Positions 2,821 through 48,745 of a DNA stretch of 56,204 nt are shown one piece after another; position 1 is the first letter of the stretch; each line of letters begins with the position of its first letter. The stretch is from a virus, in IMG/VR virus record IMGVR_UViG_3300017417_000001, positions 1 through 56,204 of that record. One strand, 5' to 3'. The position numbers were made by a program, and so were the translations under genes. Below the pieces are notes generated by a model. The model saw nothing but the letters and a program-made list of their open reading frames with translations, had not been told where the DNA came from and searched no databases.

Positions 2821-4359
2821 GTGCCGTCGCCCAACTGGATCGACAAGGCACTCAGCTACGTGGCGCCCCAGCGCGCCGAGAAGCGGCTTGCCGCCCGGCA
2901 GCGCATCCAGCGGATGTCGACGGCCCGCAACCTCTACGACGCCGCCACGCTGGGCCGGCGCGCGAACGGCTGGCGCCGGATCTCGACCGACGCGAACTCC
3001 GAGAACCGCTACGCCCTGCGCCTGCTGCGCGACGCGGCGCGGGACATGGTGCGCAACAACGCCTTCGCGTTCCGGGCCAAGTCGACGATCAAGCACAACG
3101 TGGTCGGCGCCGGGATCCTACCGCAGGTCAAGGCGGCGCGCCCGGAGCGCAAGAAGCAGATCAACGACCTGCTGAAGCTCCACTTCGACACGACCGACAT
3201 CGACGCGGACGGCCGGACCAACCTCTATGGTATCCAGGCCATGGTCATGGCCACCGTGGTCGAGGCCGGCGAGTGCCTGATCCGGAAGCGGGTGCGGCGC
3301 CCAACCGACGGGTACGCCCTGCCGTTTCAGCTGCAGGTCCTGGAGCCCGACTTCCTCGACACGAATTACGACGGGCCGCTCCCGAACGGGAACACCTGCA
3401 TCCAAGGGATCGAGTTCGACCTCCGCGGCAAGCGGGTGGCGTACTACCTCTACGACCAGCACCCGGGCGCGGTGTTCGGCGGCGCGGTGAGCCTGCCGCG
3501 TGGGCGGCGCGTCTCGGCCGACTTCGTCGCCCACATCTACCGGGTCGACCGGCCCGGGCAGGTCCGAGGCGTGTCGTGGTTCGCCCCCGTCATGGTGCGG
3601 ATGCGCGACTTCGCCGACTACACCGACGCGCAGCTGATGCGCCAGAAGATCGCCGCCTGCTTCGCGGCCTTCATCACCTCGGAGGAGGACTTCGACGCGG
3701 GCGGCGCGATCGGCGAGGACGGCAGCATCAGCGCCAACGACGGCGCCAGCCCGTACCCGGTCGAGAGCTTCGAGCCGGGCATGATCGAGCGGCTGCGGCC
3801 CGGGGAGACCGTGACGGCCTTCCAGCCGCCGACGACCGCGGACTTCCAGCCGTACTACTCGACCACGCTGCACGAGATCGCGGCCGGCCTGAACATCCCA
3901 TTCGAGTCGCTGACCGTCGATCTGAGCGAGGTGAGCTTCATCAGCGGGCGCCTCGGCCGGATCGAGTTCCACACGTCGGTCGATGACTGGCGCTGGAACA
4001 TGCTCATCCCGCAGATGATGGGGCCCCTCGCAGCGTGGACGCTGGAGGCGGCTTCTGTCGCGACGGGATCAAGCGAGCCGTTCACGCTCGGGTGGACCCC
4101 GCCCCGGTGGGAGATGCTGGACCCGGCGGCCGAGGTCGCGGCCTCGAGCGCCGCCATTCGTAACGGCCTGACCTGGCGCAGCGAGGAGCTGCGCAAGAAC
4201 GGCATCGACCCCGACGACTGGCTCGCCGGAATGGTCGCCGACAACGCCCTGGCCGACGCGAACGGCATCGTCCTCGATTCGGATCCGCGGACCACCACCC
4301 TGCGCGGCGCCCAGCAGAAGTCCGACAACGCGAAGCTGCCGGATGCGCTCGCCCCCTGA
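2821..4359 (+). CDS. Portal protein, lambda gpB type
   Basis: 512 aa with a GTG start, in the lambda order A-W-B. Looks like the Phage_portal_2 family (FQLQVLEPDFLD, YRVDRPGQVRGVSWFAP). Confidence 0.9.
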   Translation: MPSPNWIDKALSYVAPQRAEKRLAARQRIQRMSTARNLYDAATLGRRANGWRRISTDANSENRYALRLLRDAARDMVRNNAFAFRAKSTIKHNVVGAGILPQVKAARPERKKQINDLLKLHFDTTDIDADGRTNLYGIQAMVMATVVEAGECLIRKRVRRPTDGYALPFQLQVLEPDFLDTNYDGPLPNGNTCIQGIEFDLRGKRVAYYLYDQHPGAVFGGAVSLPRGRRVSADFVAHIYRVDRPGQVRGVSWFAPVMVRMRDFADYTDAQLMRQKIAACFAAFITSEEDFDAGGAIGEDGSISANDGASPYPVESFEPGMIERLRPGETVTAFQPPTTADFQPYYSTTLHEIAAGLNIPFESLTVDLSEVSFISGRLGRIEFHTSVDDWRWNMLIPQMMGPLAAWTLEAASVATGSSEPFTLGWTPPRWEMLDPAAEVAASSAAIRNGLTWRSEELRKNGIDPDDWLAGMVADNALADANGIVLDSDPRTTTLRGAQQKSDNAKLPDALAP

Positions 4360-4373
4360 ACACGGACCACAGC

Positions 4374-6545
4374 ATGACCAAGCCACGCAGGCCCGCGAAG
4401 GGCGCCGGCGCGCGCGCCGACATGCAGGGCACTCGCTCGCTCGTGATGAACGGCGAGCTGATGCTCTACGGCGTCGTCGACAGCTACATCGATGCTTACG
4501 ACCCGGTCGGCGCCGTCGTGCGCTCGCTCGACGTCATGGGCTCGATCATCGAGCTCGCCGACCAGCCGCGGCTGAGCGTGCGCATCAACTCCCCGGGCGG
4601 CAACGTCATGGAGGGGCTGTCGATCTTCAACGCCCTGCGCAACGCGGGCAAGCCGATCGACATCCACATCGACGCCATGGCCGCCTCGATCGCCTCGGTG
4701 ATCGCGATGGCCGGCGACACGATCACGATCGCCGACACCGGCACGATCATGATCCACAACCCCTGGGACGTGGCGGTCGGCGATGCCGACGACATGCGCC
4801 AGCGGGCCGACGAGATCGACCGTCTGAAGGCGATCGTCGTCGACATCTACGCCAAGCGCACCGGGCTCGACCCGGCCGAGATCGACGCGCTGATGACCGC
4901 CGAGACCTTCATGTCCGCAGACGACGCGGTCGAGCGCGGCTTCGCAGATTCGGTCGAGCAGGGCTTGGCCATCGCCGCGTGCGCGCGGCTGACCCGAGAG
5001 GATCTGGGGCGTCTCAATGCTCCGGTGTCGGCCCGCGCGGCGCGCGGCTCGACCGTCACGGCTGCCGCGCCCGCGGTTCAGCCCCAACCTGCGGCCCCCG
5101 CCGCGCCCCCTGAGGAGAAGCCCGCGATGGCTGAAAACACCCCCGCCGGCGGCTCCGCTGCTCCGGCCGTTCCCGCGCACACCCCGGCTCCCGCCCCGGC
5201 GCCGGCCGTCGATCAGGGCGCGTTGCGCCGTGAGGCGACCGAGGCCGAGCGCGGCCGCGTCACCGGCATCCTGGCCGCGGCGCGCTCCGCGAAGTTCGAC
5301 CCGACCGACGCCTTCGTGACCGGGCTCATCCAGAACAGCATCGACCTGCAGGCGGCCCGCACCGCGATCCTCGACCGCTGGTCCGAGACCCAGAACGCCC
5401 GGCAGGACAACCCGCCCGGTGGTGAGCGTCCGTCCGGCATCGAAGTCCAGGCAGACGCGGTTGACCGCTGGGCCGAGGGCGCCGAGCGAGGCCTGATGAT
5501 CCGCACCGGCCTCGCCCGGGCCGAGGACAAGGATCGCGGCAACGAGTTCGTCGGCCTCACCCTGGCCGAGCTCGCCCGCTCCTCGCTGACCGTCCGCAAC
5601 ATGAAGTCCGGCGGCGAGAACCGCATGGCCATGGTCGGCCGGGCCTTCACCGTCCGCAACAGCGGTCCGGGCTTCCACTCGACCTCGGACTTCCCGAGCA
5701 TCCTCCAGAACGTCGCCTACCGCGCCGTGCTGAAGGGCTACCAGGAGGTCGACGAGACCTTCCCGCTCTGGACCGGCAAGGGCACGGCCTCGGATTTCCG
5801 CCCGATCTCCCGCGTCGACATGGGCTTGTTCCCGTCGCTCGGGAAGGTCGAGGAGGGCGCCGAGTACACCTACGCCACCATGGGCGACACCGGCACCGTG
5901 GTGCAGGTCGCGACCTACGGGCGCCTGTTCGCCATCACCCGCCAGGCCATCATCAACGACGACCTGCAGTTCTTCCAGCGGGTGCCGGAGCGGATGGGCC
6001 GCGCCGCCAAGCGCACGATCGGCAACCTCGTCTACGCGACGCTGAACGTGAACCCGGTCATGCAGGACGGCGTCGCCCTGTTCAACGCGGCGCACGGCAA
6101 CCTCGCCACCAACTCGGCGCCCCCGAGCGTCGTTACCCTCGCGGCCGCCATGGCGGCGATGCAGGTACAGACCGACACCAGTGGCATCGGCACCGGCGGC
6201 GGCGTCATGCCGAAGTTCGTGCTCACCCCGCCGGCCCTGTGGATGCCGACCAAGGTCGCGATCACCTCGGCGAACTACCCGGGCGACCCCGCCTCGGTGG
6301 CCAACCCGATCCGGGACATGTTCACCCCGATCGCCGACAGCCGCCTGACCGGCTCGGCTTGGTACATGGCCGCGGATCCGAACCAGCAGGACACGATCGA
6401 GGTCACGTACCTCGACGGCGTCGAGGAGCCCTTCCTCGACCAGAAGGATGGCTGGACCGTCGACGGGACCGAGATGAAGGTCCGGATCGATGCGGGTGTG
6501 AAGGCCCTCCACTGGCGCGGTCTCTACCGCAACATCGGCGCCTGA
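4374..6545 (+). CDS. Fusion of prohead protease (ClpP/S14-like), Ala/Pro-rich scaffold linker and HK97-fold major capsid protein
   Basis: The N-terminal part carries Clp-protease motifs (INSPGGNVMEGLSIFNAL, AASIASVIAMAGD, IMIHNPW). The middle is a PAAPAAPPEE linker. The C-terminal about 350 aa looks like a major capsid protein (ATYGRLFAITRQAIINDDL, LFNAAHGNL). Confidence 0.85.
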   Translation: MTKPRRPAKGAGARADMQGTRSLVMNGELMLYGVVDSYIDAYDPVGAVVRSLDVMGSIIELADQPRLSVRINSPGGNVMEGLSIFNALRNAGKPIDIHIDAMAASIASVIAMAGDTITIADTGTIMIHNPWDVAVGDADDMRQRADEIDRLKAIVVDIYAKRTGLDPAEIDALMTAETFMSADDAVERGFADSVEQGLAIAACARLTREDLGRLNAPVSARAARGSTVTAAAPAVQPQPAAPAAPPEEKPAMAENTPAGGSAAPAVPAHTPAPAPAPAVDQGALRREATEAERGRVTGILAAARSAKFDPTDAFVTGLIQNSIDLQAARTAILDRWSETQNARQDNPPGGERPSGIEVQADAVDRWAEGAERGLMIRTGLARAEDKDRGNEFVGLTLAELARSSLTVRNMKSGGENRMAMVGRAFTVRNSGPGFHSTSDFPSILQNVAYRAVLKGYQEVDETFPLWTGKGTASDFRPISRVDMGLFPSLGKVEEGAEYTYATMGDTGTVVQVATYGRLFAITRQAIINDDLQFFQRVPERMGRAAKRTIGNLVYATLNVNPVMQDGVALFNAAHGNLATNSAPPSVVTLAAAMAAMQVQTDTSGIGTGGGVMPKFVLTPPALWMPTKVAITSANYPGDPASVANPIRDMFTPIADSRLTGSAWYMAADPNQQDTIEVTYLDGVEEPFLDQKDGWTVDGTEMKVRIDAGVKALHWRGLYRNIGA

Positions 6546-10491: not shown

Positions 10492-10637
10492 TCGTCGCCT
10501 GCCTGCGCCTCGCGATGATCTATCGGTGCGACCCTGCCAGCATGCTGTGCCGATCGCCCGAGTACATCGCGGCCCTCAACCGGCACACCCCCGACGTGCT
10601 CGAAGAGATGATCGAGGCCAAGCTCTATGGCGGATGA
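10084..10637 (+). CDS. Tail assembly chaperone, -1 frameshift fusion product (gpGT / E+E'-like)
   Basis: A -1 slip on T_TTT_TTT (10461-10467) joins ...HLSGFF to SSGAGEELIVACLRLAMIYRCDP...AKLYGG. The -1 frame ends at 10637 and overlaps the tape-measure start. Confidence 0.75.
10461..10467 (+). other. Programmed -1 ribosomal frameshift slippery heptamer T_TTT_TTT
   Basis: GGT TTT TTT CTT in the zero frame. The -1 frame is open for 56 further codons. Confidence 0.75.
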
Positions 10638-13284
10638 AGCCCTGCGCATGCAGGCGGAGGTCCAGGACAAATTCTCTGGTCCGCTCAAAGCCCTCCGCGC
10701 ACAGCTCCTCGACGTCACCCGGACCGGGGCCAATCACAGCGAGACGCTGGCGAAGGGCTTCAAGGGCGTCGAAGGCGCCATGCAGTCGACGGCGCGCACC
10801 GCATCGAGCCTGATCAACCCGGCCTTCGCCGCGCTCGGCGTGACAGGCCTCACCGCCGGCGCGGCCGTGGCCGGGATCTCGGCCGCGCTGAACAAGCTCA
10901 CCGGCAACCTGTCCGGCCTCGGGCAGCTCAGCCGCGAGACCGGCGTGGCGGCCAAGACGCTGCAGGAGTTCGGTGCGGTCGCGGGCCGGTTCGGGATCGA
11001 GCAGGATGCCGTCGCCAACGGCGCCCGGAACTTCGCCGCGCAGATGCGGCTGTTCTCGCGCAGCACCGGTGAGGCGTTCCAGTGGGTCGTCCGGCAGGGC
11101 ACGGACGCGGCCGGCCGCAAGGCCTTTCAGGATTTCGCCACCGACCTCCAGCGCACCACCGACGAGGGTGAGAAGCTCAAGAAGGCGCTCGCCTTCATGG
11201 AGACGATCCGCAACCCGGTGGAGCGGGGCATCTTCGCTCAGCAGTTCTTCGGCAACCAGGATCTCGGGCGCCTCGCGGACGGCCACCTCGGCAAGGTCGT
11301 CGACCTGTTCAAGAAGGCCCGGGAAAAAATCGGGGTGTTCAACCCCGACGACATCCTCAACGCTGACAAGTTCGACCGCTCGATCTCGGACCTGAAGGGG
11401 TCCATGTCCCGGTTCGGCCTGCTGATCGCGCGCGAATTGCTCGGACCGGCAACCCAGTTCACGACCTGGATCAACGAGCTTGTCTCCGACCAGCGCGGCG
11501 ACCTGCTGAAGGGCCTCCGCGAGGGCCTGGAGGGCGTCAAGAAAGAGCTCGGCGAGATCAACTTCAAGCAGGCCGGCGACGATGCCGTTGCCTTCCTGAA
11601 GGAGAGCACCGCGCTCGCAGGCTCCATGGCCCGGGCGTTCCACGAAGTCGCCGAGGCCATCCATGCGATCCGCGACGGCAATCCCGTCGCGGCGGCGCGC
11701 GGGCTCGACGGCGCCTCGGGACCTCTGGCCCGCAAGTTCGCGCCCCGAGTCGGCGATGACGAGATCGCGGCCCAGGAGGAAGTTGATCGGCTGCGCAAGC
11801 TGAAGGATCTGGCCAACGAAGCGCAGGGCCACTTCATCGGTCGCACGCAGCAGCGCCTGGGACTGATCGGAACGCCCGAGCAGGTCGGCAAGAACCTTGA
11901 AGACGCCGAGGCTCGCCTGAAGGCACTACAGGGCCGCACGCCGGAGCAACGGCAGAAGGACTTCGAATCGTCGGACAAGCTGCGGCGCTCTATCGACAGC
12001 CTGACCGACGAGATGAAGGCCAGCCGCGGCGGTGCCACCGTCCAGAAGCAGTCCATGGATACGCAGGGCGGCTTGTTCGGAGGCGCCACGATCCAGTCGG
12101 CGGCGTTTGGCGGCGGCGCCTTCCGGCGGCCGGGTGGGCTTGGAGGCGGGGGCTACGGCGGCGGCGCGAACCTGCCGGGCGGCGGATCTGGCCCTGGCTA
12201 TGGCGGCGAGCAGGGGCCAGCTGGCGGCGGTCTTGGTCGACGCTTCGGTGGTGGTGGGCGTTTTAATCCCCTTGGCGGCGGGTCGGTGACGCAAATACCC
12301 GGTGCTCCTCCAGGAAGTCCGGGTAGTGCTGCGACTGCGGTTCAACCGCCGCCGGGAGGATATCCGGGCATCTCTGCCCGCGACATGAAAAACGTTAACC
12401 CCGAGATGGCGGAGTATATTCGTCAATCGGCCATTGCGAACGGTATTGACCCAAACGTCGCGCTGCGTATCGCAAATAGCGAAGGACTTAGGGGCTCTAT
12501 CCCCGGCGTGAGGAACACGCCTGGTGATAAGGGGACCAGCTTCGGCCCGTTCCAACTACACTACGGATCCAACATCCCGGGGCTTACTCTTAAAGGACTT
12601 GGGGATCGGTACACCCGCGAAACGGGCCATCATGCGAGCGACCCTAAATACTGGAAAGAGCAAATCGATTTTGCTTTACGCACTGCCCGCAAAGAGGGTT
12701 GGGGCGCTTGGCACGGCCGGATTGGTGCACGCATTGGTCTGCGAGATGGCATCGGCACTGTACGACCGGTTCCAATCCCGGAACAGCGCACCCCTACCGC
12801 GACTCGCGGCGATGGCGGCGACGCTAATTTTCTCCCTAATGGCGCCCCACGTGTCCTGAAGCCTAGCAGCATGAAGGATGCCCCGGGTCTCACGATGGAC
12901 GAGGCAGACCGGCAGCGCGGGAGTCTGAAAAGCGGTTTCGTCCGACGCGCTGAGATGCTGGCCGATCCGAACGACGAGCGCCGCCAGGGTGAGAAGCCGT
13001 TCTACTCCGAGGAGGATGATCGACGGGCTGCGCGAGATCTCGGCATCGCCCTGCGAGCTACTCGGGCCAAGCAGGAGGCCCAGCGAGAGCAAATGCGCCT
13101 AGACGGCGCTCGAGTTGGCGCCGCGGCCGCGCAGGCCGGTGTGGTCGGACCGAATGTGAACGGCAGTGTGACGACGGTCATTGAGAAAGCGGGCCCCGAG
13201 GCGCGGGCGAAGACCAGCGTGAACGGTAACCTCTTCCAGGAGGTCCGGACCCAGAACGGGTCACAGATGCGGAAGGCGGATTAA
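10627..13284 (+). CDS. Tape measure protein with glycine-rich linker and embedded lytic-transglycosylase-like domain
   Basis: 885 aa and largely helical. It has a Gly-rich stretch (GGLGGGGYGGGANLPGGGSGPGYGG) followed by SLT-like motifs (IANSEGL, GPFQLHY). The position after the chaperone genes fits a tape measure. Confidence 0.88.
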   Translation: MADEALRMQAEVQDKFSGPLKALRAQLLDVTRTGANHSETLAKGFKGVEGAMQSTARTASSLINPAFAALGVTGLTAGAAVAGISAALNKLTGNLSGLGQLSRETGVAAKTLQEFGAVAGRFGIEQDAVANGARNFAAQMRLFSRSTGEAFQWVVRQGTDAAGRKAFQDFATDLQRTTDEGEKLKKALAFMETIRNPVERGIFAQQFFGNQDLGRLADGHLGKVVDLFKKAREKIGVFNPDDILNADKFDRSISDLKGSMSRFGLLIARELLGPATQFTTWINELVSDQRGDLLKGLREGLEGVKKELGEINFKQAGDDAVAFLKESTALAGSMARAFHEVAEAIHAIRDGNPVAAARGLDGASGPLARKFAPRVGDDEIAAQEEVDRLRKLKDLANEAQGHFIGRTQQRLGLIGTPEQVGKNLEDAEARLKALQGRTPEQRQKDFESSDKLRRSIDSLTDEMKASRGGATVQKQSMDTQGGLFGGATIQSAAFGGGAFRRPGGLGGGGYGGGANLPGGGSGPGYGGEQGPAGGGLGRRFGGGGRFNPLGGGSVTQIPGAPPGSPGSAATAVQPPPGGYPGISARDMKNVNPEMAEYIRQSAIANGIDPNVALRIANSEGLRGSIPGVRNTPGDKGTSFGPFQLHYGSNIPGLTLKGLGDRYTRETGHHASDPKYWKEQIDFALRTARKEGWGAWHGRIGARIGLRDGIGTVRPVPIPEQRTPTATRGDGGDANFLPNGAPRVLKPSSMKDAPGLTMDEADRQRGSLKSGFVRRAEMLADPNDERRQGEKPFYSEEDDRRAARDLGIALRATRAKQEAQREQMRLDGARVGAAAAQAGVVGPNVNGSVTTVIEKAGPEARAKTSVNGNLFQEVRTQNGSQMRKAD

Positions 13285-13629
13285 TCACGCTCCGCAATTT
13301 GGAATTTTAGGAAGCGGCGCACGGCGGCTGACCTTATCAATCAAACTGTCAACCGCCTCACCGATCGTCCGCCGTGGCTTGCCGCGGCACTCAGCTTTAA
13401 TGTAGTCGCCAATATTACAAGCGCTACCTAGCTGCTCAGTCACCGGGCCGCGCTCCATTATGTAATTGATTGCCGGGTCGATAACCTCGGCATACCGTTG
13501 GGTGCCATAGATCTTGGGCAGCACCGCGCATGTGTAGGCGGACACCTCGGCATAGGACGGTCCTGTGTCCTGAGCGGTCGCGCCGCCAGCAGCAACGACG
13601 AAGGCGAAGGTGGCGAGAATCCTGCGCAT
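13285..13629 (-). CDS. Small secreted cysteine-containing protein (moron gene 2)
   Basis: The start at MRRILATFAFVVAAGGATAQD gives a Sec-type signal peptide, and the protein has four Cys. A TAATG overlap couples it to the upstream minus-strand gene. G+C is lower than in the flanks. Confidence 0.65.
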   Translation of the reverse strand: MRRILATFAFVVAAGGATAQDTGPSYAEVSAYTCAVLPKIYGTQRYAEVIDPAINYIMERGPVTEQLGSACNIGDYIKAECRGKPRRTIGEAVDSLIDKVSRRAPLPKIPNCGA

Positions 13630-14441
13630 TAGTTTACTGCTTTCTGATGCTGGCGAGCCCACGTTTGAAAATCAGTTTCATTAGCCCATGTATGCGGCGT
13701 ATCATTGACGCGTGAGACGACAGCGCCATTTGAAAAAACATAATATAGGTAACCAGCATAAGTACCCTGATTGATTACGCTTCCGGTGCCATGGTTCCCA
13801 ACGCGGGTAGCAATTTCTAGCGCCGCGGGGGCAGTGTTCTTAAAGGGCGTCTCAGATATTTGGCCGTCAGCCCAAGTTCGGAATGCGTACATGCTCGGAA
13901 AGGCTTCTGTTCCAGACGGGGTATGCGCCGTCACGCTATGGTCGGAGCAGACCACATAGCGGACACCCTTGTAGCTCTCAGTTGGTGTAGCGGGGGCTGT
14001 GAGCTGTGGGGTCGTGGTTGAAGCGCCAATGCGGCTCGCCACGAAATCAACAGCCTCCCATTCGGCCCAGAAGCGGCGCCTCTCGCCATTAACATTGGCT
14101 TCGTAGACCATGCGGTTTGAGAACGCTGGTTTGAAACGCCGAATGTGAGAGCGGCAACGGGCGTTAAATTCGGGGTCCCCAGATGCGCCCTGCCGAGCAG
14201 AAATCGTCTGCAGTAGGGCCTTGTGCTGGCGATCCTGCTTCGCCCCATTGGCCGACCACATGCCGATGAACAGCGCGATGAACCACAGAACGACGCCCGG
14301 CAGGACCAGGAAGGGCAGAGCAAAGGCTGCGCAGACACAAAGTAGGCCAACCCCTATGGCCGCTGCGATCCGGCCCTGGGAGAGCGGTAGCAGCGCTGGC
14401 AGGAAAGCCAGCACGAACATCACAACGGCAGCACCGGTCAT
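13629..14441 (-). CDS. Membrane protein with 2-3 N-terminal TM helices and a triplicated C-terminal motif of about 35 aa (moron gene 1)
   Basis: 270-aa ORF on the strand opposite the structural operon. The hydrophobic N-terminus reads VVMFVLAFLPALLPL..IGVGLLCVCAAFALPFLVLPGVVLWFIALFIGMW. Three related segments end in ..FVASR, ..FRTWADG and ..FQTWARQ. Confidence 0.7.
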   Translation of the reverse strand: MTGAAVVMFVLAFLPALLPLSQGRIAAAIGVGLLCVCAAFALPFLVLPGVVLWFIALFIGMWSANGAKQDRQHKALLQTISARQGASGDPEFNARCRSHIRRFKPAFSNRMVYEANVNGERRRFWAEWEAVDFVASRIGASTTTPQLTAPATPTESYKGVRYVVCSDHSVTAHTPSGTEAFPSMYAFRTWADGQISETPFKNTAPAALEIATRVGNHGTGSVINQGTYAGYLYYVFSNGAVVSRVNDTPHTWANETDFQTWARQHQKAVN

Positions 14442-14497
14442 CGCGCGTCCTTATAGCGAAGCTGCAATCTACCTATGGTTAGGTGCGAGTCGAGAGC

Positions 14498-15016
14498 ATG
14501 GCTGATAGCCCCTGGCGCGACCGCCTCCGCCCGGCCTCCTTCCGTGGAGCCGTGTTCTACGTCGAGGTCGGCGCCCGGTCCGGCGGCCGGCGTATCGCGC
14601 CGCACGAGTTCCCAAAGCGCGACACGCCGTACCCGGAAGATATGGGCCGGAAGGGACGCTCGTTCGCCGTCACGGCCTACTGCGTCGGCCCGGACTACCA
14701 GGACCAGCGCGATGACCTGATCTTCGAACTGGAGACCGAGGGCGTCGGCACGCTGGTCCACCCAACCTACGGCGAGTTCGAGGTCAAGAACGGCGTCTTC
14801 AACCTCGTCGAGCGCCGCGAGCGCGGCGGCTACTGCGAGATCGAGATCCCGTTCTTCGAGGCGGGCGAGGACGCGGCCTTCACGGTCTCCGACGCGACCC
14901 AGAACCAGGTGCAGATGAGCGCTGACGGGGCTGAGCAGGCGGTTGCCGCCGGCGGCGATCAGGGACTGTACGCGCTGCGAGATCCCAATCGACCGCTGAC
15001 CGGAGGGGGCGCCTAG
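14498..15016 (+). CDS. Mu gpN-like DNA circulation protein, N-terminal part
   Basis: WRDRLRPASFRGAVFYVE..GGRRIAPHEFPKRDTPYPEDMG matches the DNA_circ_N signature. It ends at a TAG that is followed directly by an in-frame ATG. Confidence 0.8.
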   Translation: MADSPWRDRLRPASFRGAVFYVEVGARSGGRRIAPHEFPKRDTPYPEDMGRKGRSFAVTAYCVGPDYQDQRDDLIFELETEGVGTLVHPTYGEFEVKNGVFNLVERRERGGYCEIEIPFFEAGEDAAFTVSDATQNQVQMSADGAEQAVAAGGDQGLYALRDPNRPLTGGGA

Positions 15017-15691
15017 ATGAGCCTGCGGCGCGACAAGCCGACCCTCGACCTGATCGGCGCTGTCCTCGACGCCATCCTGGCGTTCAGCGGCGCCGAGAAC
15101 CTGGCGGCGGCCGGTGCCGATCTCGACGCGGCCGTCGGGGATCTGCGCGCGGATGCCCAAGGCCTACTCCGGCAGGCCGCTCTATTCACCCCGCTGGCCC
15201 GATGCTTCAGCCTCGCCCAGCAGACCGGCATGACGGTCGACACGATGGAGCGGCTGCGCGCGACGATCGCGGGGCTGTCTACCGCGGACGCCCGGGCGGC
15301 CCTGGTCCAATCCCGCAGCCAGATGTTCTGCTGCATCCAGGAAGCCCGGATCACCGCGGCGACCACCTACACCAGCCGCAACGAGGTGGACCGGGTGCTC
15401 GGTCTCGTGGCGGCGGCCTTCGATTTGTCTCAGAGCGCGGCGGCAGATGCCGGCGACGCCGCCGGCTACCGCGCCTTGGTGGGGCTCCGCGCCGCCATGG
15501 TGCGGGACCTGACGGATCGATCCCGGCCGCTGCCGAAACTCGTGACCTACACCTTCGGGCGCATACGCTCGTCGCTCACCCTGGCGCAGCGCCTCTATGG
15601 CGATGCCGGCCGGGCCGACGAGATCATCGCCGAAAACGAGATCGTGCATCCTCTGTTCGCCCCGCGCGCCGGGCGCGCGCTGTCGGCCTGA
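15017..15691 (+). CDS. Mu gpN-like protein, C-terminal part (separate ORF)
   Basis: 224-aa ORF that starts at the codon after the TAG of the previous ORF, in the same frame. The two parts together have the size of a typical gpN. Confidence 0.7.
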   Translation: MSLRRDKPTLDLIGAVLDAILAFSGAENLAAAGADLDAAVGDLRADAQGLLRQAALFTPLARCFSLAQQTGMTVDTMERLRATIAGLSTADARAALVQSRSQMFCCIQEARITAATTYTSRNEVDRVLGLVAAAFDLSQSAAADAGDAAGYRALVGLRAAMVRDLTDRSRPLPKLVTYTFGRIRSSLTLAQRLYGDAGRADEIIAENEIVHPLFAPRAGRALSA

Positions 15692-32015: not shown

Positions 32016-32299
32016 CGTGGAAGTCCCTGATGGCCCTGATCATTCCGGCGGCCCTCCGGAAGGACGCCCACGCCGAATTTACACGGGCCATCGCTGCCAG
32101 CGTGCACGCGAGCAAGAGCCGGCGAAAGGCGCTCGTTCAGGTCACGATGGCCGCCGACACCCGCGCATCCTCGATGGAAGCCACGATCCATCGCATCGAA
32201 GGCCGATCGGGAGATCGCCTGACAGACCGTCCGCAGGTTGGCGAAGCCGCCTACAGGGTCGCCGAGGCGACGCGCGAGTTCCTGAGAAAGCAGCGATGA
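32012..32299 (+). CDS. Hypothetical protein
   Basis: 95-aa ORF with 4-nt overlaps on both sides. Confidence 0.5.
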   Translation: MTWKSLMALIIPAALRKDAHAEFTRAIAASVHASKSRRKALVQVTMAADTRASSMEATIHRIEGRSGDRLTDRPQVGEAAYRVAEATREFLRKQR

Positions 32300-32844
32300 A
32301 GGTCGTCATGGAGATTGCCCGCAGCCGCACGCTGTGGGTCGGGCTTTTGCTGATGGTCGGGTATTGGGTCATCGTTCCCTGGGTACCGATCAAGCCGCAG
32401 AACGAGTTCCTTCGCATTGGACGGACGGTCGCGGCGATCGCGGTCTCGATCGCGTTCCTGCCGGGGATCGTAAAGGCCCTGCGCACGCCTTGGCCGACTT
32501 ACAGTGGCCAGCTGATCCTCGGAATCGTGCTGTCGTGGATCGGCGTCTCGGGCTCGGCTGGTTGGGTACTCATCTGGTCCATGGCAGGTCAGCCGCAGTG
32601 GATGCTGGACTCAAACGTCAACGGCTTTTTTCTATGGATGCAGATCTTGGGAGCTGCGCTGCACCTCACAGCAAAGCACAGCGTCGAGGACGACATCCCG
32701 CGGCCAAACTGGATCCGTCTCGGCATCGCAGTAGCCTTCCTGGTGCTGATCGGAATCGGATTCATGGCGAGCGCGCCCGACATGCACAGCTTGGCGGCTG
32801 CGCTGAAGCCTTGGTTCGCCGAAAATCCAGATCTGCCCGACTGA
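32296..32844 (+). CDS. Polytopic membrane protein
   Basis: ATG at 32296, 182 aa, with about five hydrophobic helices. Confidence 0.6.
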   Translation: MKVVMEIARSRTLWVGLLLMVGYWVIVPWVPIKPQNEFLRIGRTVAAIAVSIAFLPGIVKALRTPWPTYSGQLILGIVLSWIGVSGSAGWVLIWSMAGQPQWMLDSNVNGFFLWMQILGAALHLTAKHSVEDDIPRPNWIRLGIAVAFLVLIGIGFMASAPDMHSLAAALKPWFAENPDLPD

Positions 32845-39754: not shown

Positions 39755-41917
39755 CTACTCTGCTGCAAAGAGGGGCATCGGGACGGCCTTGGCCGCCGGG
39801 CGCACGCGGGCATCGGCCTCGCGGTAGTTCGCGGCGACGAGCGCCTGCGCCATGTCGGGGCACACGGAATTCCCGCACATGCGCCCCTGCTGCTCGAGGG
39901 TGAGCGGGACGATCGAGCCGTCCTCGAGCATGCCGCGATCGATCACGTAGTCCGACCGGAATCCCTGCGCGTTGAAGCGCTCGCGCGGCGTCAGCATCCG
40001 CATGCCGATGTCGACGATCACGTGGGGCTCGCCGTCGACCATCACCGTGACGACGCCGAATCCGTCCTTGGCCCGGACGGTGTGCAGCGGCTCGGTGGCC
40101 GACTGGGCGAAGGCCCCGGTCCCGTACCACTTCGTCAGGAAGGCATAGACGGCGCCCGCGTGGTTGCCGCCGGCGGTGAACGTCGGCGCCGGGCTATCCG
40201 CGGCCGCGCTCCGGCCGTCGGCCCCGTGCATGTTGATGAGGTGCGCCGCGACGACGTTCTGGTGCCCGCCGGCGGCCGTGATGGTCGAGATCGGCTCCCG
40301 GGCATCGGCCCCGGCCTTAACCGCCCCGCCGCGCTCGGTGTTGTGCTGCGCCAGGAATGCGGCGACGACCTTCGTCTTGCCCTGGCCGTGCGGCATGACG
40401 GTTGGCGCTGGCTCATCCACGGCAGCCCCAACCGACATGCCGAAGTCGCGGGCGAGATGCGCCGCCACCACGCTGACCTTGTCGCGACCGGACAGGGTGT
40501 GCGTCGGTTGCTCCGCCTGCTGCCCTACCGATTTGCCGTAGTGCTTCTGCAGGTGGACCGCTGCGAGGCTCCCCTCGTTGCCGGTCGGCACAATGACGGG
40601 CGCCGGCTCCTCGACGGACCGGGCGCGCGGATCCTGGCCGGGCCGCTCGCCGTAGCGTGGTACGAGGCAGGCGCCGACCAGACTGAGGCCGGCCCCCTGT
40701 GCCGTGATGGTGTGCGCGGGCTCGTCGACCGCAGTGTGCGGTTTGTCGGCGCTTCGCATCGTCATCAGGTGCGGGCACACGACCCCGAGCGGCGCCGCGC
40801 CGCCGCCGTGCGTCTCGCTGGCATGCGAGGTCACGGTGGCAAGCGGGCGATCGATCTCGTGGCCGGTGGCGCCGCGGTTGAACTTGGTCACGAAGGGCGC
40901 GACGATCGCGTTCTGGTCCTTCGGGCTGGCCGTGATCGTGTGCAGCGGGCCGCCCGCATCCCGATTGCCGCCGCCCTGCTGACCATAGGTGACGAAGGGC
41001 TGCACCAGTGCGTCGCCGCTGTAGTGCGTCGCCGTCGGCATCGGCTCGTCGAGGCCGCGATCGCGCCGGCCACGGCTGTCGCCATGGTTCACCCGCACCA
41101 GGAACGGCTTCGCGGCCTTCACCACGTAGCGCATCGTTCCCTTGGCGATCCGAGCCATCGTCGCCTCGGCGAGCGGGCGGTTCGCGCGGATACCGTGCTT
41201 CGCCTTGATCTCGGCTGAGGTCTCGAAGATCGACGGGCACGGCAGCGACCAGTCGATGATCTCGGCTGCCGTTCGCCAGGGCTTGAGCCGGCCGGACCGC
41301 ACGCCCTCGCTGTCCGGCGCGCCATGCGTCGGCTCCGGCCAGACGATCAGCTTCCCGTCCCGGCGCGCGACCAGGAACAGCCGCTTCCGGATTGTAGGCG
41401 CGCCATAGTCGCAAGCCCGCAGCTCGCGCCATTCGACGACGTAGCCCATGGCCTCCAGGGCGGCGACGAACTGCTTGAACGTGGCGCCACGCTGGACCGG
41501 GCACGGCCGGCCGTCATCGAGCAGCGGGCCCCAATCGGCGAACTCCTCGACATTCTCCAGGAACACGACCCGCGGCCGCTGGCGCTTCGGCAGGCTCTTG
41601 ATCCAGCGCACGCCGACCCAGGCCAGGCCGCGGATCGCCTTCTCACGCGGCTTACCGCCCTTCGCCTTGCTGAAGTGCTTGCAGTCCGGGCTCATCCATA
41701 GAAGCCCGACATCACGGCCGGCACACAGACCGACCGCATCGACGTTCCAGACGTCCTCCTCGATGTGGTGCGTGCCCGGATGGTTGATCCGGTGCATCGC
41801 GAGCGCCAGGCCGTCGTGGTTCAGCGCATAGTCCGGGTCCCGGCCGAGCGCGGCGCGGATGCCCTCGGACGCGCCGCCGCCGCCCGCGAAGCTGTCGATG
41901 ATCAGAGGCGCGCTCAT
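39755..41917 (-). CDS. DNA (cytosine-5) methyltransferase with expanded variable region
   Basis: Motif I DSFAGGGGAS, motif IV SPDCKHFS, motif VI FLENV, motif VIII APTIRKRLFLVA, motif IX RMLTPRERFNAQGF and motif X GNSVCP. About 350 aa lie between motifs VIII and IX. Confidence 0.92.
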   Translation of the reverse strand: MSAPLIIDSFAGGGGASEGIRAALGRDPDYALNHDGLALAMHRINHPGTHHIEEDVWNVDAVGLCAGRDVGLLWMSPDCKHFSKAKGGKPREKAIRGLAWVGVRWIKSLPKRQRPRVVFLENVEEFADWGPLLDDGRPCPVQRGATFKQFVAALEAMGYVVEWRELRACDYGAPTIRKRLFLVARRDGKLIVWPEPTHGAPDSEGVRSGRLKPWRTAAEIIDWSLPCPSIFETSAEIKAKHGIRANRPLAEATMARIAKGTMRYVVKAAKPFLVRVNHGDSRGRRDRGLDEPMPTATHYSGDALVQPFVTYGQQGGGNRDAGGPLHTITASPKDQNAIVAPFVTKFNRGATGHEIDRPLATVTSHASETHGGGAAPLGVVCPHLMTMRSADKPHTAVDEPAHTITAQGAGLSLVGACLVPRYGERPGQDPRARSVEEPAPVIVPTGNEGSLAAVHLQKHYGKSVGQQAEQPTHTLSGRDKVSVVAAHLARDFGMSVGAAVDEPAPTVMPHGQGKTKVVAAFLAQHNTERGGAVKAGADAREPISTITAAGGHQNVVAAHLINMHGADGRSAAADSPAPTFTAGGNHAGAVYAFLTKWYGTGAFAQSATEPLHTVRAKDGFGVVTVMVDGEPHVIVDIGMRMLTPRERFNAQGFRSDYVIDRGMLEDGSIVPLTLEQQGRMCGNSVCPDMAQALVAANYREADARVRPAAKAVPMPLFAAE
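40043..41104 (-). repeat. Ten tandem coding repeats of 33-41 aa inside the C5 methyltransferase (TRD-like units)
   Basis: Every unit has a hydrophobic start (FL/HL/FV), a Gly-containing segment, then (D/E)EP-x-x-T-(I/V)-T-like, then hydrophobic VVAA/IVAP. Example cores are DEPMPTAT, GGPLHTITA, DRPLATVTS, DEPAHTITA, EEPAPVIVP, EQPTHTLSG, DEPAPTVMP, REPISTITA, DSPAPTFTA and TEPLHTVRA. Confidence 0.85.
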
Positions 41918-47193: not shown

Positions 47194-47964
47194 CTATCGC
47201 CTTGAGATCACTCCAGCCACCCGCCCTATGATGCGCACTGAACCATCCAGAATCAGCTCGATCGGCCGATAACTTGTGTTTCTAGAGCTGCATACGATGC
47301 GAGGCGGCTCATGCCCCCTTAGCAGTTCGACCTGTTTAATGATGACGCCATCACCATCGTTCACAGCGAAGATGCCACCTTGGCGCGGATCGGTGTCACG
47401 ACGATCTATAATCACGCGATCGCCCGACGAGAGTCCTTTGGCCGTTCCATCATCCATAGAGTCGCCGCGTACCTGCAGGATCTCCGAAGCTTCAAAACTC
47501 AGCCCCAATTCGCGCTCGACATACGCAGCAGGTAAACGCCACTGCTCTTTCTGCTTGTCGCTCGGTATTCCCTCATGGTTCCATTCCTCATCGGATCGAC
47601 CGCCGCCGTACGATGCACCGGCACGCAGATCGAGCTCCGGTATCGACGGCCAATCATAAAGCGTTGGATCAATGTGCCTAGTTGATGATTGTTCTCTTTG
47701 AGTTTTTGATACACGCTCTTTATGTGCATCCGGCCTTTGGTGGAATTTCTTCGGACCGCCCTCTGGTGTTTCGCCCTTTAACCATTCAACGGTTACGCCG
47801 CAAACTTTGGCAATTTCATAGATCTTTGTCGGCTTCTTAGAATTGCCGGCTTCTATAGCTTGAATGCTCGACTGTCCGGCCATGCTGACTCGCTCCGCAA
47901 GTTCGCCTTGCGTCAGTCCAGCCGCCTCGCGTGCAAATTGCAATCGGGAGCCAAGGGTATCCAT
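47194..47964 (-). CDS. CI/LexA-type repressor (XRE HTH plus S24 autopeptidase domain)
   Basis: Start chosen at MDTLGSRLQFAREAAGLTQGELAERV (HTH). The S24 motifs are LRAGASYGG (Ala-Gly), VRGDSM (Ser) and VIIKQV (Lys). G+C is lower than the genome background. Confidence 0.88.
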   Translation of the reverse strand: MDTLGSRLQFAREAAGLTQGELAERVSMAGQSSIQAIEAGNSKKPTKIYEIAKVCGVTVEWLKGETPEGGPKKFHQRPDAHKERVSKTQREQSSTRHIDPTLYDWPSIPELDLRAGASYGGGRSDEEWNHEGIPSDKQKEQWRLPAAYVERELGLSFEASEILQVRGDSMDDGTAKGLSSGDRVIIDRRDTDPRQGGIFAVNDGDGVIIKQVELLRGHEPPRIVCSSRNTSYRPIELILDGSVRIIGRVAGVISRR

Positions 47965-48030
47965 GCACCGCCGGTAGCGTCCATCTGACCAACTGTCCCC
48001 ACTGATTTTTTGGTTTTCTGGCTTGTGGAA

Positions 48031-48044
48031 ACCAAGGTATTGGT
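48031..48044. promoter_or_regulatory. Operator-like palindrome ACCAAGGTATTGGT in the divergent repressor/cro region
   Basis: Third copy of ACCAA-N4-TTGGT. A degenerate copy ACTGATTTTTTGGT lies at 48001-48014 and an extra TTGGT half-site at 48049-48053. Confidence 0.6.
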
Positions 48045-48058
48045 CTACTTGGTCAGGC

Positions 48059-48292
48059 ATGACGACGCCGAACCATGCCGCGTTGGCGCGGGCCATTGAG
48101 ATCTCTGGAACTCAAGCTGCCCTTGCTCAGGCAATCGGCAAGCGGCAGTCGCATGTTGAGTATTGGCTTAATAAGAGCAAGCACGGTGTGCCTGCCGAAT
48201 TGGTAGCCGCAGTGGAAGCCGCTACTGGTGTTCCGCGCCATGAACTGCGTCCTGATCTATTCTTCGCGCCTCATTCCGAAAAGGCCGCTTAA
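48059..48292 (+). CDS. Cro-like HTH protein (YdaS/Cro family)
   Basis: MTTPNHAALARAIEISGTQAALAQAIGKRQSHVEYWL, 77 aa, divergent from the repressor gene. Confidence 0.8.
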   Translation: MTTPNHAALARAIEISGTQAALAQAIGKRQSHVEYWLNKSKHGVPAELVAAVEAATGVPRHELRPDLFFAPHSEKAA

Positions 48293-48444: not shown

Positions 48445-48745
48445 TGGCGCCCGCCACATCATCGCGCTTCGGCGCGTCCGACCTCGACCGGGACGTCCGC
48501 AGGACCGTCTCGGGCGGAACCCGTTCGCCGGGCATGGGCCGAGAAAGCCCCGGCATCCTTTCGCGCGCTCTGCGTGCTCCGTCGCCCCGTCAGGGGCAGC
48601 CCCTCTTGGGCGTTTCCTCCCTGACTTGCCGGAGCCTTCGGGCCCCGGCCCTTTCTGCCGCACCTCTGCCGTCTGCCCGCCAAGACGTCGGCCGGGGTGC
48701 TCGTCGTGTGCCTGCGTATCGCCTGCTCCGTCGAGGAGCCTGCTG

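Follow-up and report, generated by a model that had tools for sequence, protein, structure and literature searches.

An antisense gene pair between the tape measure gene and gpN

We analyzed two adjacent genes, g1 and g2, in a viral genome of 56,204 nucleotides (IMG/VR record IMGVR_UViG_3300017417_000001, positions 1 to 56,204; "the window" refers to this whole stretch). The window is a complete temperate phage with a Mu-like, contractile tail. Within its tail operon, g1 and g2 lie on the minus strand between the gene for the tape measure protein (TMP; 10627..13284, plus strand, 885 amino acids) and gpN, the gene for the DNA circulation protein (14498..15691, plus strand). g1 (13629..14441, minus strand) has an ATG start and encodes 270 amino acids. 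g2 (13285..13629, minus strand) encodes 114 amino acids, counted from its ATG; the program that listed the open reading frames (ORFs) placed the start upstream, at a GTG at 13662. The stop codon of g1 overlaps the start codon of g2 (TAATG), and the stop codon of g2 (13285-13287) immediately adjoins that of the convergent TMP gene (13282-13284), so there is no spacer between g2 and TMP. The pair fills exactly the interval from the TMP stop to the gpN start, with 56 bp between the ATG of g1 and the divergent ATG of gpN at 14498.

Between about 51 and 32844, each of the remaining called genes has the plus orientation; the public gene calls and our own calls, which were based on the GC content of third codon positions (GC3), agree on this. 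The composition of the cassette is foreign. The GC content of g1 is 0.571 and that of g2 is 0.586, versus 0.676 for the whole window, and their GC3 is 0.60 and 0.64, versus about 0.88 for the structural genes. A preliminary description of this DNA had called g1 and g2 the only minus-strand genes in a plus-strand structural operon of about 31 kb, wedged between TMP and gpN without a 3' spacer, translationally coupled, and lower in GC. Our analysis bears out each of these points.

The divergent intergenic region (14442..14497, 56 bp) contains a putative promoter for g1, identified by eye (TCGACT at 14493-14488, 16 nucleotides, and TAGATT at 14471-14466, minus strand). A candidate Shine-Dalgarno sequence (AAGGA, 14452-14448, minus strand) was also read from the sequence. 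The window and L001, a related locus, have in common a weak TCGACT-N16-TAGA(T/G)T element in front of g1, as judged by eye and under the threshold of the scanner. Because the element overlaps the translation signals of gpN, its conservation is not independent evidence. Rfam and tRNA scans gave no match inside the cassette.

g1 and g2 are predicted envelope proteins

As the preliminary description had noted, the product of g2 has a Sec signal peptide and four cysteines. The signal peptide has the n-region MRR, a hydrophobic core, and a cleavage motif A-T-A followed by Q (the peptide ends in GGATA and the mature protein begins with QD). The mature part is about 95 amino acids. An AlphaFold2 (AF2) model from the single sequence has six helices, with a pLDDT of 73. 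We predict that g2 is a Sec-exported, all-helical protein.

g2 has no recognizable relatives. Among 5.8 billion proteins it hit only itself, and it had no match in Pfam, PHROGs, PADLOC, or NCBIfam. Its model, compared to PDB and BFVD with Foldseek, gave nothing with E < 1, and a profile search of PDB had no match. The only hint from the fold search was a phage protein with a Rap1a domain, at E = 4.7, which is far from significant.

In g1, hydropathy and AF2 agree on three N-terminal helices (residues 4-17, 23-39, and 43-82), which settles the two or three transmembrane (TM) helices of the preliminary description. The AF2 model of the protein as a whole was too poor for use (pLDDT 45). From these features, g1 appears to be an inner-membrane protein with an N-terminal module of three TM helices and a soluble C-terminal part. 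By the positive-inside rule, its topology is probably N-out/C-in, with a cytoplasmic C-terminal tail. The sequence features of g1 and g2 thus support the localization of both in the envelope.

The TM module (amino acids 1-85; 14187..14441, minus strand) has the consensus AFLPxLI..GR...V..L(N/C)......PG..LWF.AL..A....N.AKRD.QHR.LL. It is followed by motif R1 (amino acids ~104-138; 14028..14132, minus strand), KPAFSNRxVY..xNGExRRF..xEAxxFVASR, and by two repeats. R2 (amino acids ~155-196; 13854..13979, minus strand) has the consensus YKGxRYV..D.sxtA....G...F.S...FR.WAD. R3 (amino acids ~224-267; 13641..13772, minus strand) is missing from the g1 homolog of L001 and matches proteins P0022 and P0023. 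R2 and R3 are homologous (hhalign probability 93.7%, E = 2e-7; cross-hits between their hidden Markov models at 1e-7 to 4e-4). In contrast, R1 has no significant relation to R2 or R3 (E = 0.014-0.19). The three copies of a motif of about 35 amino acids that were reported previously are therefore two repeats and one separate motif.

Among 5.8 billion proteins, g1 hit only itself and one relative, P0002 (55% identity). Searching 1.84 billion representatives exhaustively with HMMER gave 26 related proteins. These relatives carry the parts of g1 separately, which shows that g1 is modular. The TM module also stands alone, in proteins of 80-160 amino acids (alignment A3); R1 is conserved in 11 proteins, behind differing TM anchors; and R2/R3-type repeats are likewise found behind other TM anchors. 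A profile search with the TM module found only 10 proteins, none of which has a Pfam domain. The heterogeneity of another alignment, A2, precluded its use as a profile.

Neither gene's product had been recognized in the preliminary description, and we found no match for g1 in Pfam, PHROGs, PADLOC, or NCBIfam (at E ≤ 1, Pfam gave just two chance-level hits to domains of unknown function), nor in PDB with a profile of its soluble module. The suggestion of a defense or abortive-infection module is not supported for modules of a known kind, as no PADLOC family matched g1 or g2 at E ≤ 1. We also used tblastn to compare g1 and P0011 to about 50,000 records of cultured phages, which gave nothing useful.

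A likeness of the TM module of g1 to the Imm family of phage T4 (PF14373) was tested and was not supported: there was no hit at E ≤ 10. The PF14373 profile finds T4 Imm itself at E = 7.4e-16, and among the relatives of the g1 TM module it matches only P0007, at E = 1.1. When alignment A3 was compared to T4 Imm with hhalign, the probability was 6%.

g1 is a real gene, since a relative with 55% identity lies at the same junction in another prophage (L001) and since the ratio of nonsynonymous to synonymous substitution rates (dN/dS) is 0.35 relative to the L001 copy and 0.054 relative to a copy in L007. These ratios indicate that g1 is under purifying selection. The L007 copy (5687-5980) is 87% identical to g1 over the TM module and is truncated by an insertion sequence (DDE_Tnp_1). 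It adjoins a homolog of the window's gene at 32017-32844, and chromosomal genes (leuA and an isocitrate/isopropylmalate dehydrogenase) are nearby. As this copy is outside the tail genes, g1 also travels outside the tail operon. A TM-module protein in L008 (P0010, 157 amino acids; 4388-4861), an uncultured phage contig, is in yet another genomic niche: it lies in a long run of small ORFs in the same orientation, beside a Cro-like gene. The contigs that encode P0004, P0005, and P0012 are too short to give an informative gene context.

A recurrent and hypervariable slot

To collect related loci, we used the protein encoded by the second ORF of gpN (gpN-C; 15017-15691); the first ORF (14498-15016) encodes the DNA_circ_N domain (gpN-N). 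This gave 80 viral loci, 2 genomes, and 1 metagenome contig. An initial scan of genomes with gpN-N alone had found nothing. A survey of the 80 loci by the size of the gap was crude and noisy, so only the junctions that we checked manually are counted here.

In nine further distinct loci, small antisense genes with Sec or lipoprotein signals directly follow the TMP stop (L001, L010/L038, L013, L014, L015, L028, L046, L083, and L099). The mature sequences of these cargo proteins are all mutually unrelated. In L001, the gene for the g1 homolog P0002 diverges from gpN, and the gene after it encodes an unrelated signal-peptide protein of 101 amino acids. In L010 and L046, a TM gene (P0019 and its ortholog, respectively) is followed by a signal-peptide protein, of 108 amino acids in L010 and 144 in L046. 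Other slots hold one Sec protein, such as those of L014 (100 amino acids, 4 Cys), L013 (77 amino acids, 6 Cys), L099 (104 amino acids, 4 Cys), and L028 (136 amino acids). L083 has a lipoprotein of 160 amino acids with an LTGC lipobox, and L015 has a Sec protein of 170 amino acids along with a lysozyme inhibitor of the Ivy family (133 amino acids). In L019, L027, L045, and L049, the slot is empty, and the gap from TMP to gpN is 9-95 bp.

The Ivy gene of L015, a Methylobacterium prophage, is at 5527-5928 on the minus strand. Its product matches PF08816 at E = 1.6e-16 and has the loop CKVHDC. It abuts a TMP gene that encodes a PF18013 tail-lysozyme domain. Using tblastn, we found no homolog of this Ivy in the records of cultured phages.

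P0019, which is found in L010, L011, and L038, is a distant relative of the g1 TM module (30% identity). The g1 TM module is thus found in the slot in three lineages. In L010, L011, L038, and L046, the tail genes are in a different order (gpP, gp45, gpN-N, TMP, the cassette, gpN-C). In phages of the L010/L046 type, the TM gene is again antisense and immediately 3' of the TMP gene. Two separate ORFs encode gpN in the window and in all of the relatives. In the L010/L046 lineage, the TMP gene and the cassette lie between these halves (12982-13410 and 9264-9935 in L010), which means that the order of the tail genes has been rearranged there.

Comparison to close relatives shows where the slot begins and ends. 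Homology between the window and L014 or L015 stops at the TMP stop and restarts at the ATG of gpN (14498). Sibling prophages whose flanking DNA is 79-90% identical have different cargo in the slot. The first ~60 nucleotides of the cargo gene, which encode the signal peptide (13573..13629, minus strand, in g2), are conserved among the window, L013, L014, and L015, and the sequences are unrelated thereafter. In the window, g1 ends exactly at the ATG of this leader. The slot therefore comprises a fixed leader, a fixed 3' boundary, and swappable cargo, and g1 is an optional upstream addition to it.

These comparisons show that the locus is a recurrent, hypervariable antisense slot, rather than a one-off insertion. 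It lies in temperate phages of Alphaproteobacteria with Mu-like tails, between the TMP gene and the next tail gene. Because the cassette lies between genes that are adjacent in relatives and its composition deviates, we consider it to be a moron. The survey of related phages at this junction, as proposed in the preliminary description, found it to be variably filled (nine loci) or empty (four loci). Of the suggestion that this is an envelope moron that is expressed in the lysogen, two parts stand. One is its accessory status, given the adjacent flanks in L019, L027, L045, and L049, the differing cargo of siblings, the foreign composition, and a temperate phage; the other is the envelope signals. 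Expression in the lysogen is an expectation, which we discuss below.

A more distant relative, L089, has a low-GC (0.49) island of 2.7 kb (3316-5972) after an ORF of 706 amino acids that is possibly a TMP. The island contains several antisense ORFs, one of which encodes a zinc-ribbon protein with a TM2-like motif (identified by eye). Possibly, it is a larger island of cargo genes in the place that corresponds to the slot.

The slot co-varies with a domain of the tape measure protein

TMP is encoded after the sheath, tube, and tail assembly chaperone genes, and homologous TMPs are found in the relatives. Its central domain (codons ~553-735; 12286..12831, plus strand) has been swapped and is as GC-poor as the cassette: its GC is 0.586, and its GC3 is 0.55, versus 0.86 in the rest of TMP. 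When the window is compared to L014 and L015, there are only two breaks in homology in 8.5 kb: this domain (12286-12831) and the slot (13284-14497). The 450 bp between the breaks, at the 3' end of the TMP gene, are 74-80% identical to L014 and L015. L038 and L046 show the same double break in the tail region. The content of the slot thus co-varies with the enzymatic domain of TMP in two independent lineages. The GC content of the TMP domain and the cargo are alike in the window and in L014, but not in L015.

Where the window's TMP has this domain, the TMPs of relatives contain the PF18013 tail lysozyme (L014, L015, L099, L027, and L033), Peptidase_M15_4 (L028), or endolysin-type PHROGs (L038 and L046); more distant TMPs have CHAP (L049 and L051). 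The central domain of the window's TMP is 61-86% identical to domains in the TMPs of L095, L096, and L097. We presume that it degrades the cell wall, and its NSEG...GPFQLHY motif looks lysozyme-like. It may represent an undescribed family of tail-borne wall hydrolases.

Comparison to known exclusion systems

The closest analogy to g1-g2 is with Imm and Spackle (gp61.3) from phage T4. In the periplasm, Spackle (75 amino acids) forms a disulfide-containing helical bundle. It is a selective inhibitor of the gp5 tail lysozyme and acts in concert with the membrane protein Imm (PMC7677548). Both systems pair a multi-TM inner-membrane protein with a small, Sec-exported, helical protein, and g2 resembles the Spackle family in being small and, as predicted from its signal peptide, four cysteines, and six modeled helices, periplasmic, helical, and disulfide-bonded. 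Also, Spackle targets a tail hydrolase; g1-g2 adjoin the gene of a tail protein with a hydrolase-type domain, and a sibling slot (L015) holds a genuine lysozyme inhibitor. However, the sequences are not related (BLASTP of g2 against Spackle gives no alignment), and g1 has an extra soluble region of about 185 amino acids compared to Imm. The genetics differ as well: imm and the spackle gene are unlinked, early genes of a virulent phage, while g1 and g2 are coupled and antisense in the late operon of a temperate phage.

HK97 gp15 (YebO-like) is an inner-membrane moron, encoded next to the TMP gene, that blocks DNA entry and is escaped by swapping the tail region (PMC3594210). The escape was narrowed to the tail tube and TMP genes (PMC10883804). 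Like the cassette, gp15 is a tail-operon moron that adjoins TMP, and it is an inner-membrane protein expressed from the prophage. Unlike the cassette, which comprises two antisense genes 3' of TMP, gp15 is a single small gene in the orientation of the operon, between the chaperone and TMP genes; it has no sequence similarity to g1. P22 SieA is a prophage-expressed inner-membrane protein with three TM helices and a conserved motif on the cytoplasmic side, and it blocks DNA injection by disturbing the trans-envelope conduit (PMC10883804). g1 also has three TM helices, but there is no detectable homology, and g1 is larger, with the R2/R3 repeats. Furthermore, SieA acts alone and is encoded in the immI region of a podovirus, unlike g1-g2.

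The lysozyme inhibitors Ivy (PF08816), MliC, and PliG resemble g2 in being small, Sec-exported, Cys-containing, and periplasmic. But g2 matches none of them, and it is predicted to be all-helical, whereas Ivy has a mixed alpha/beta fold. In particular, g2 had no hit to the Ivy profile (PF08816, with a CKPHDC-type loop). Cor, Llp, and Ltp, which temperate or T5-like phages encode, are exported and block entry, and exclusion by Ltp (from TP-J34) is overcome by changes in TMP (PMC10883804). They differ from g2, whose signal peptide lacks a lipobox cysteine, and there is no homology.

Proposed function and alternatives

The g1-g2 cassette is probably an accessory unit of the prophage that encodes envelope proteins. 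As for its role, we propose superinfection exclusion, with a probability of about one half. The indirect support for this is the linkage of the slot to TMP, the presence of Ivy in a sibling slot, and the co-variation with the wall-degrading domain of TMP. Most likely, the cassette would be transcribed on its own in the lysogen, from the short divergent region upstream of g1. Both products would go to the cell envelope, with g1 as an inner-membrane protein with three TM helices and a cytoplasmic tail, and g2 as a small, disulfide-bonded, helical protein in the periplasm. Exclusion would act when the DNA of a related phage enters the cell: g2 would bind and neutralize a periplasm-exposed part of the incoming tail, while g1, like T4 Imm, P22 SieA, and HK97 gp15, would disturb the inner-membrane conduit and would serve as a co-factor or a second barrier. 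Three findings point to the step at which an incoming tail passes the wall and the inner membrane: the slot is attached to TMP across lineages; every occupant is exported, one being a genuine lysozyme inhibitor; and the content of the slot changes with the enzymatic domain of TMP. We therefore propose g2 as the protein that neutralizes the tail.

By analogy with Spackle and gp5, the favored target of g2 would be the wall-degrading domain within TMP. That g2 is the cognate inhibitor of this domain is a possibility that we hold with little confidence. We also put forward, as speculation, a broader form of this idea: the exported proteins of the slot would be cognate, fast-evolving inhibitors of TMP enzymes, and the two would co-diversify much as toxins and immunity proteins do. 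A lysogen would then be immune, at the step of wall penetration, to phages with the same enzyme, and g1 would be a second barrier akin to Imm or SieA.

Several observations weigh against an exported inhibitor of the tail that is made in the lysogen. No promoter or terminator passes a consensus scan (at least 9 of 12 matches to sigma-70 upstream of g1, or a terminator between g2 and TMP); the sole candidate terminator is a weak hairpin at 13109-13095. Neither a relative nor a fold match could be detected for g2, so it has no direct tie to any inhibitor family. The window's TMP domain has no hydrolase match in Pfam, PHROGs, or PDB, even by profile, so we judge its enzymatic nature from its position only. 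Cargo and domain are also not always found together. L096 and L097 have the window's type of TMP domain but no g2-like neighbor; L027, L033, L049, and L051 have TMPs with hydrolase domains and no cargo at all; and L083 has cargo and no recognized hydrolase domain. A strict comparison of enzyme-inhibitor pairing would need two loci with near-identical TMP domains and a known cargo in each, and there was no such pair (L095 ends before the slot, and the tail architecture of L096 and L097 is different). Finally, the co-variation could simply reflect two independent hot spots of recombination.

The slot might instead benefit the host. Its proteins could guard the wall or envelope of the lysogen against external lysozymes (from plants, protists, or animals) or against amidase or muramidase effectors from the type VI secretion systems of competitors. 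The cargo would then be orphan immunity or inhibitor genes, and g1 would be an unrelated membrane passenger. Ivy is best known for inhibiting lysozymes of host origin, so its presence in the L015 slot fits this account, as does the phyllosphere habit of Methylobacterium. Small, periplasmic, Cys-containing, and extremely diverse cargo is also the pattern of periplasmic immunity proteins, and the mismatches between cargo and hydrolase domains fit as well. We nevertheless consider a host benefit unlikely, because it leaves unexplained why the slot is tied to the 3' end of TMP in lineages with different tail gene orders and why cargo and the TMP enzymatic domain change jointly. Also, no immunity family was matched; the Rap1a-domain hint had E = 4.7. 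Another alternative is receptor masking. By itself or together with g1, g2 would bind or modify a component of the outer membrane or periplasm on which related phages depend, as Cor and Llp inactivate FhuA. This would block adsorption or early entry and leave the tail untouched. Exclusion of the Cor/Llp type is classically due to small exported proteins whose genes lie in or near the tail region of a temperate phage (PMC3594210, PMC9586334), and the L083 occupant is a lipoprotein. But g2 lacks a lipobox, and the diversity of cargo among near-identical phages, which presumably use the same receptors, better fits a fast-changing target on the phage side. The Ivy occupant also points to an enzyme as the target. 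We regard receptor masking as quite unlikely.

A role in the lytic cycle, such as timing lysis or keeping free tails or virions from damaging the wall of the infected cell too early ("lysis from without"), would have the cassette expressed during infection, whether early or late. Lytic infection is when T4 expresses its own Spackle and Imm (PMC7677548), and the finding of no independent terminator by the scan, with the g2 stop abutting the TMP stop, is compatible with this role. However, an antisense orientation within a late operon of about 31 kb would be unfavorable during late transcription. The cassette is dispensable and interchangeable among siblings, and the phage is temperate. A lytic function thus seems very unlikely. 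Last, the cassette could be recombination debris, without a function, that persists at a tolerated insertion site. g2 is an ORFan with no homolog, and we estimate that an ORF of 114 codons has about a 2% chance of arising per frame at this composition. This account is highly improbable given the purifying selection on g1, the intact and conserved signal peptide of g2 and its translational coupling to g1, and the confident helical fold that AF2 predicts for g2. Furthermore, filled slots always hold intact ORFs for exported proteins.

Other features of the phage genome

The head genes of the window encode a portal, a ClpP-capsid fusion, and a cement protein. The tail genes encode the sheath, tube, tail assembly chaperone, TMP, gpN, gpP, gp45-48, and fibers. 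The genes for lysogeny and replication include an integrase-family match, a CI-like repressor (helix-turn-helix and S24 peptidase domains), a DnaB helicase, and a C5 cytosine methylase. The integrase-family match is weak (E = 3e-4, under the Pfam threshold). We consider the phage to be temperate because of this match and the CI-like repressor. The nearest relatives of the window are prophages of Methylobacterium brachiatum and M. guangdongense. gpN matches PF07157 (DNA_circ_N) at E = 3e-29; among cultured phages, including SfV, ST64B, and Ralstonia phages, all matches to its N-terminal half are below 60% identity.

The ClpP-protease/major-capsid fusion (4374-6545, plus strand) is 723 amino acids long and matches PF00574 and PF25209. 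The C5 cytosine methylase domain is at the N-terminus of a protein of 720 amino acids (39755-41917, minus strand). The gene for the CI-like repressor (HTH_3 and Peptidase_S24; 47194-48096, minus strand) is GC-poor too (GC 0.542, GC3 0.54), which suggests that the immunity region is another recently exchanged module. Near this gene, within the early region, there is a match to Rfam RF00519, the suhB/mmgR family of alphaproteobacterial small RNAs (48592-48664, plus strand; 43.5 bits versus a gathering score of 41). A phage copy of a host regulatory small RNA would be unusual.

Implications

A superinfection-exclusion moron in a tail operon would be of a kind that is already known. What appear to be new are a hypervariable antisense slot anchored by its leader, the link of this slot to the enzymatic domain of TMP, and the g1 and g2 families. 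In the literature available to us, we found no paper on prophage-encoded inhibitors of TMP hydrolase domains, nor on a phage-borne Ivy beside tail genes. The TM module, R1, and R2/R3 are uncharacterized families with a few dozen members among 1.8 billion representative proteins, and g2 is an ORFan. Even if exclusion is not the role of the cassette, the locus is a clean example of a moron slot whose cargo can be swapped while the signal-peptide leader stays conserved.

Superinfection exclusion in myovirus-type temperate phages of Alphaproteobacteria is, to our knowledge, almost unexplored. If our proposal is correct, then the slot would be a previously undescribed, recurrent exclusion locus in these phages. 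In the broader, speculative form with cognate inhibitors, it would be a modular and polymorphic counterpart, in temperate phages, of T4 Spackle and Imm, and g2 and g1 would found new families of inhibitors and exclusion proteins. To find more such loci, one could look for exported proteins whose small genes are antisense and directly adjoin the TMP stop codon. The apparent co-variation also suggests why the wall-degrading domains of TMPs are so mosaic: they may be escaping from inhibitors that are encoded by prophages.

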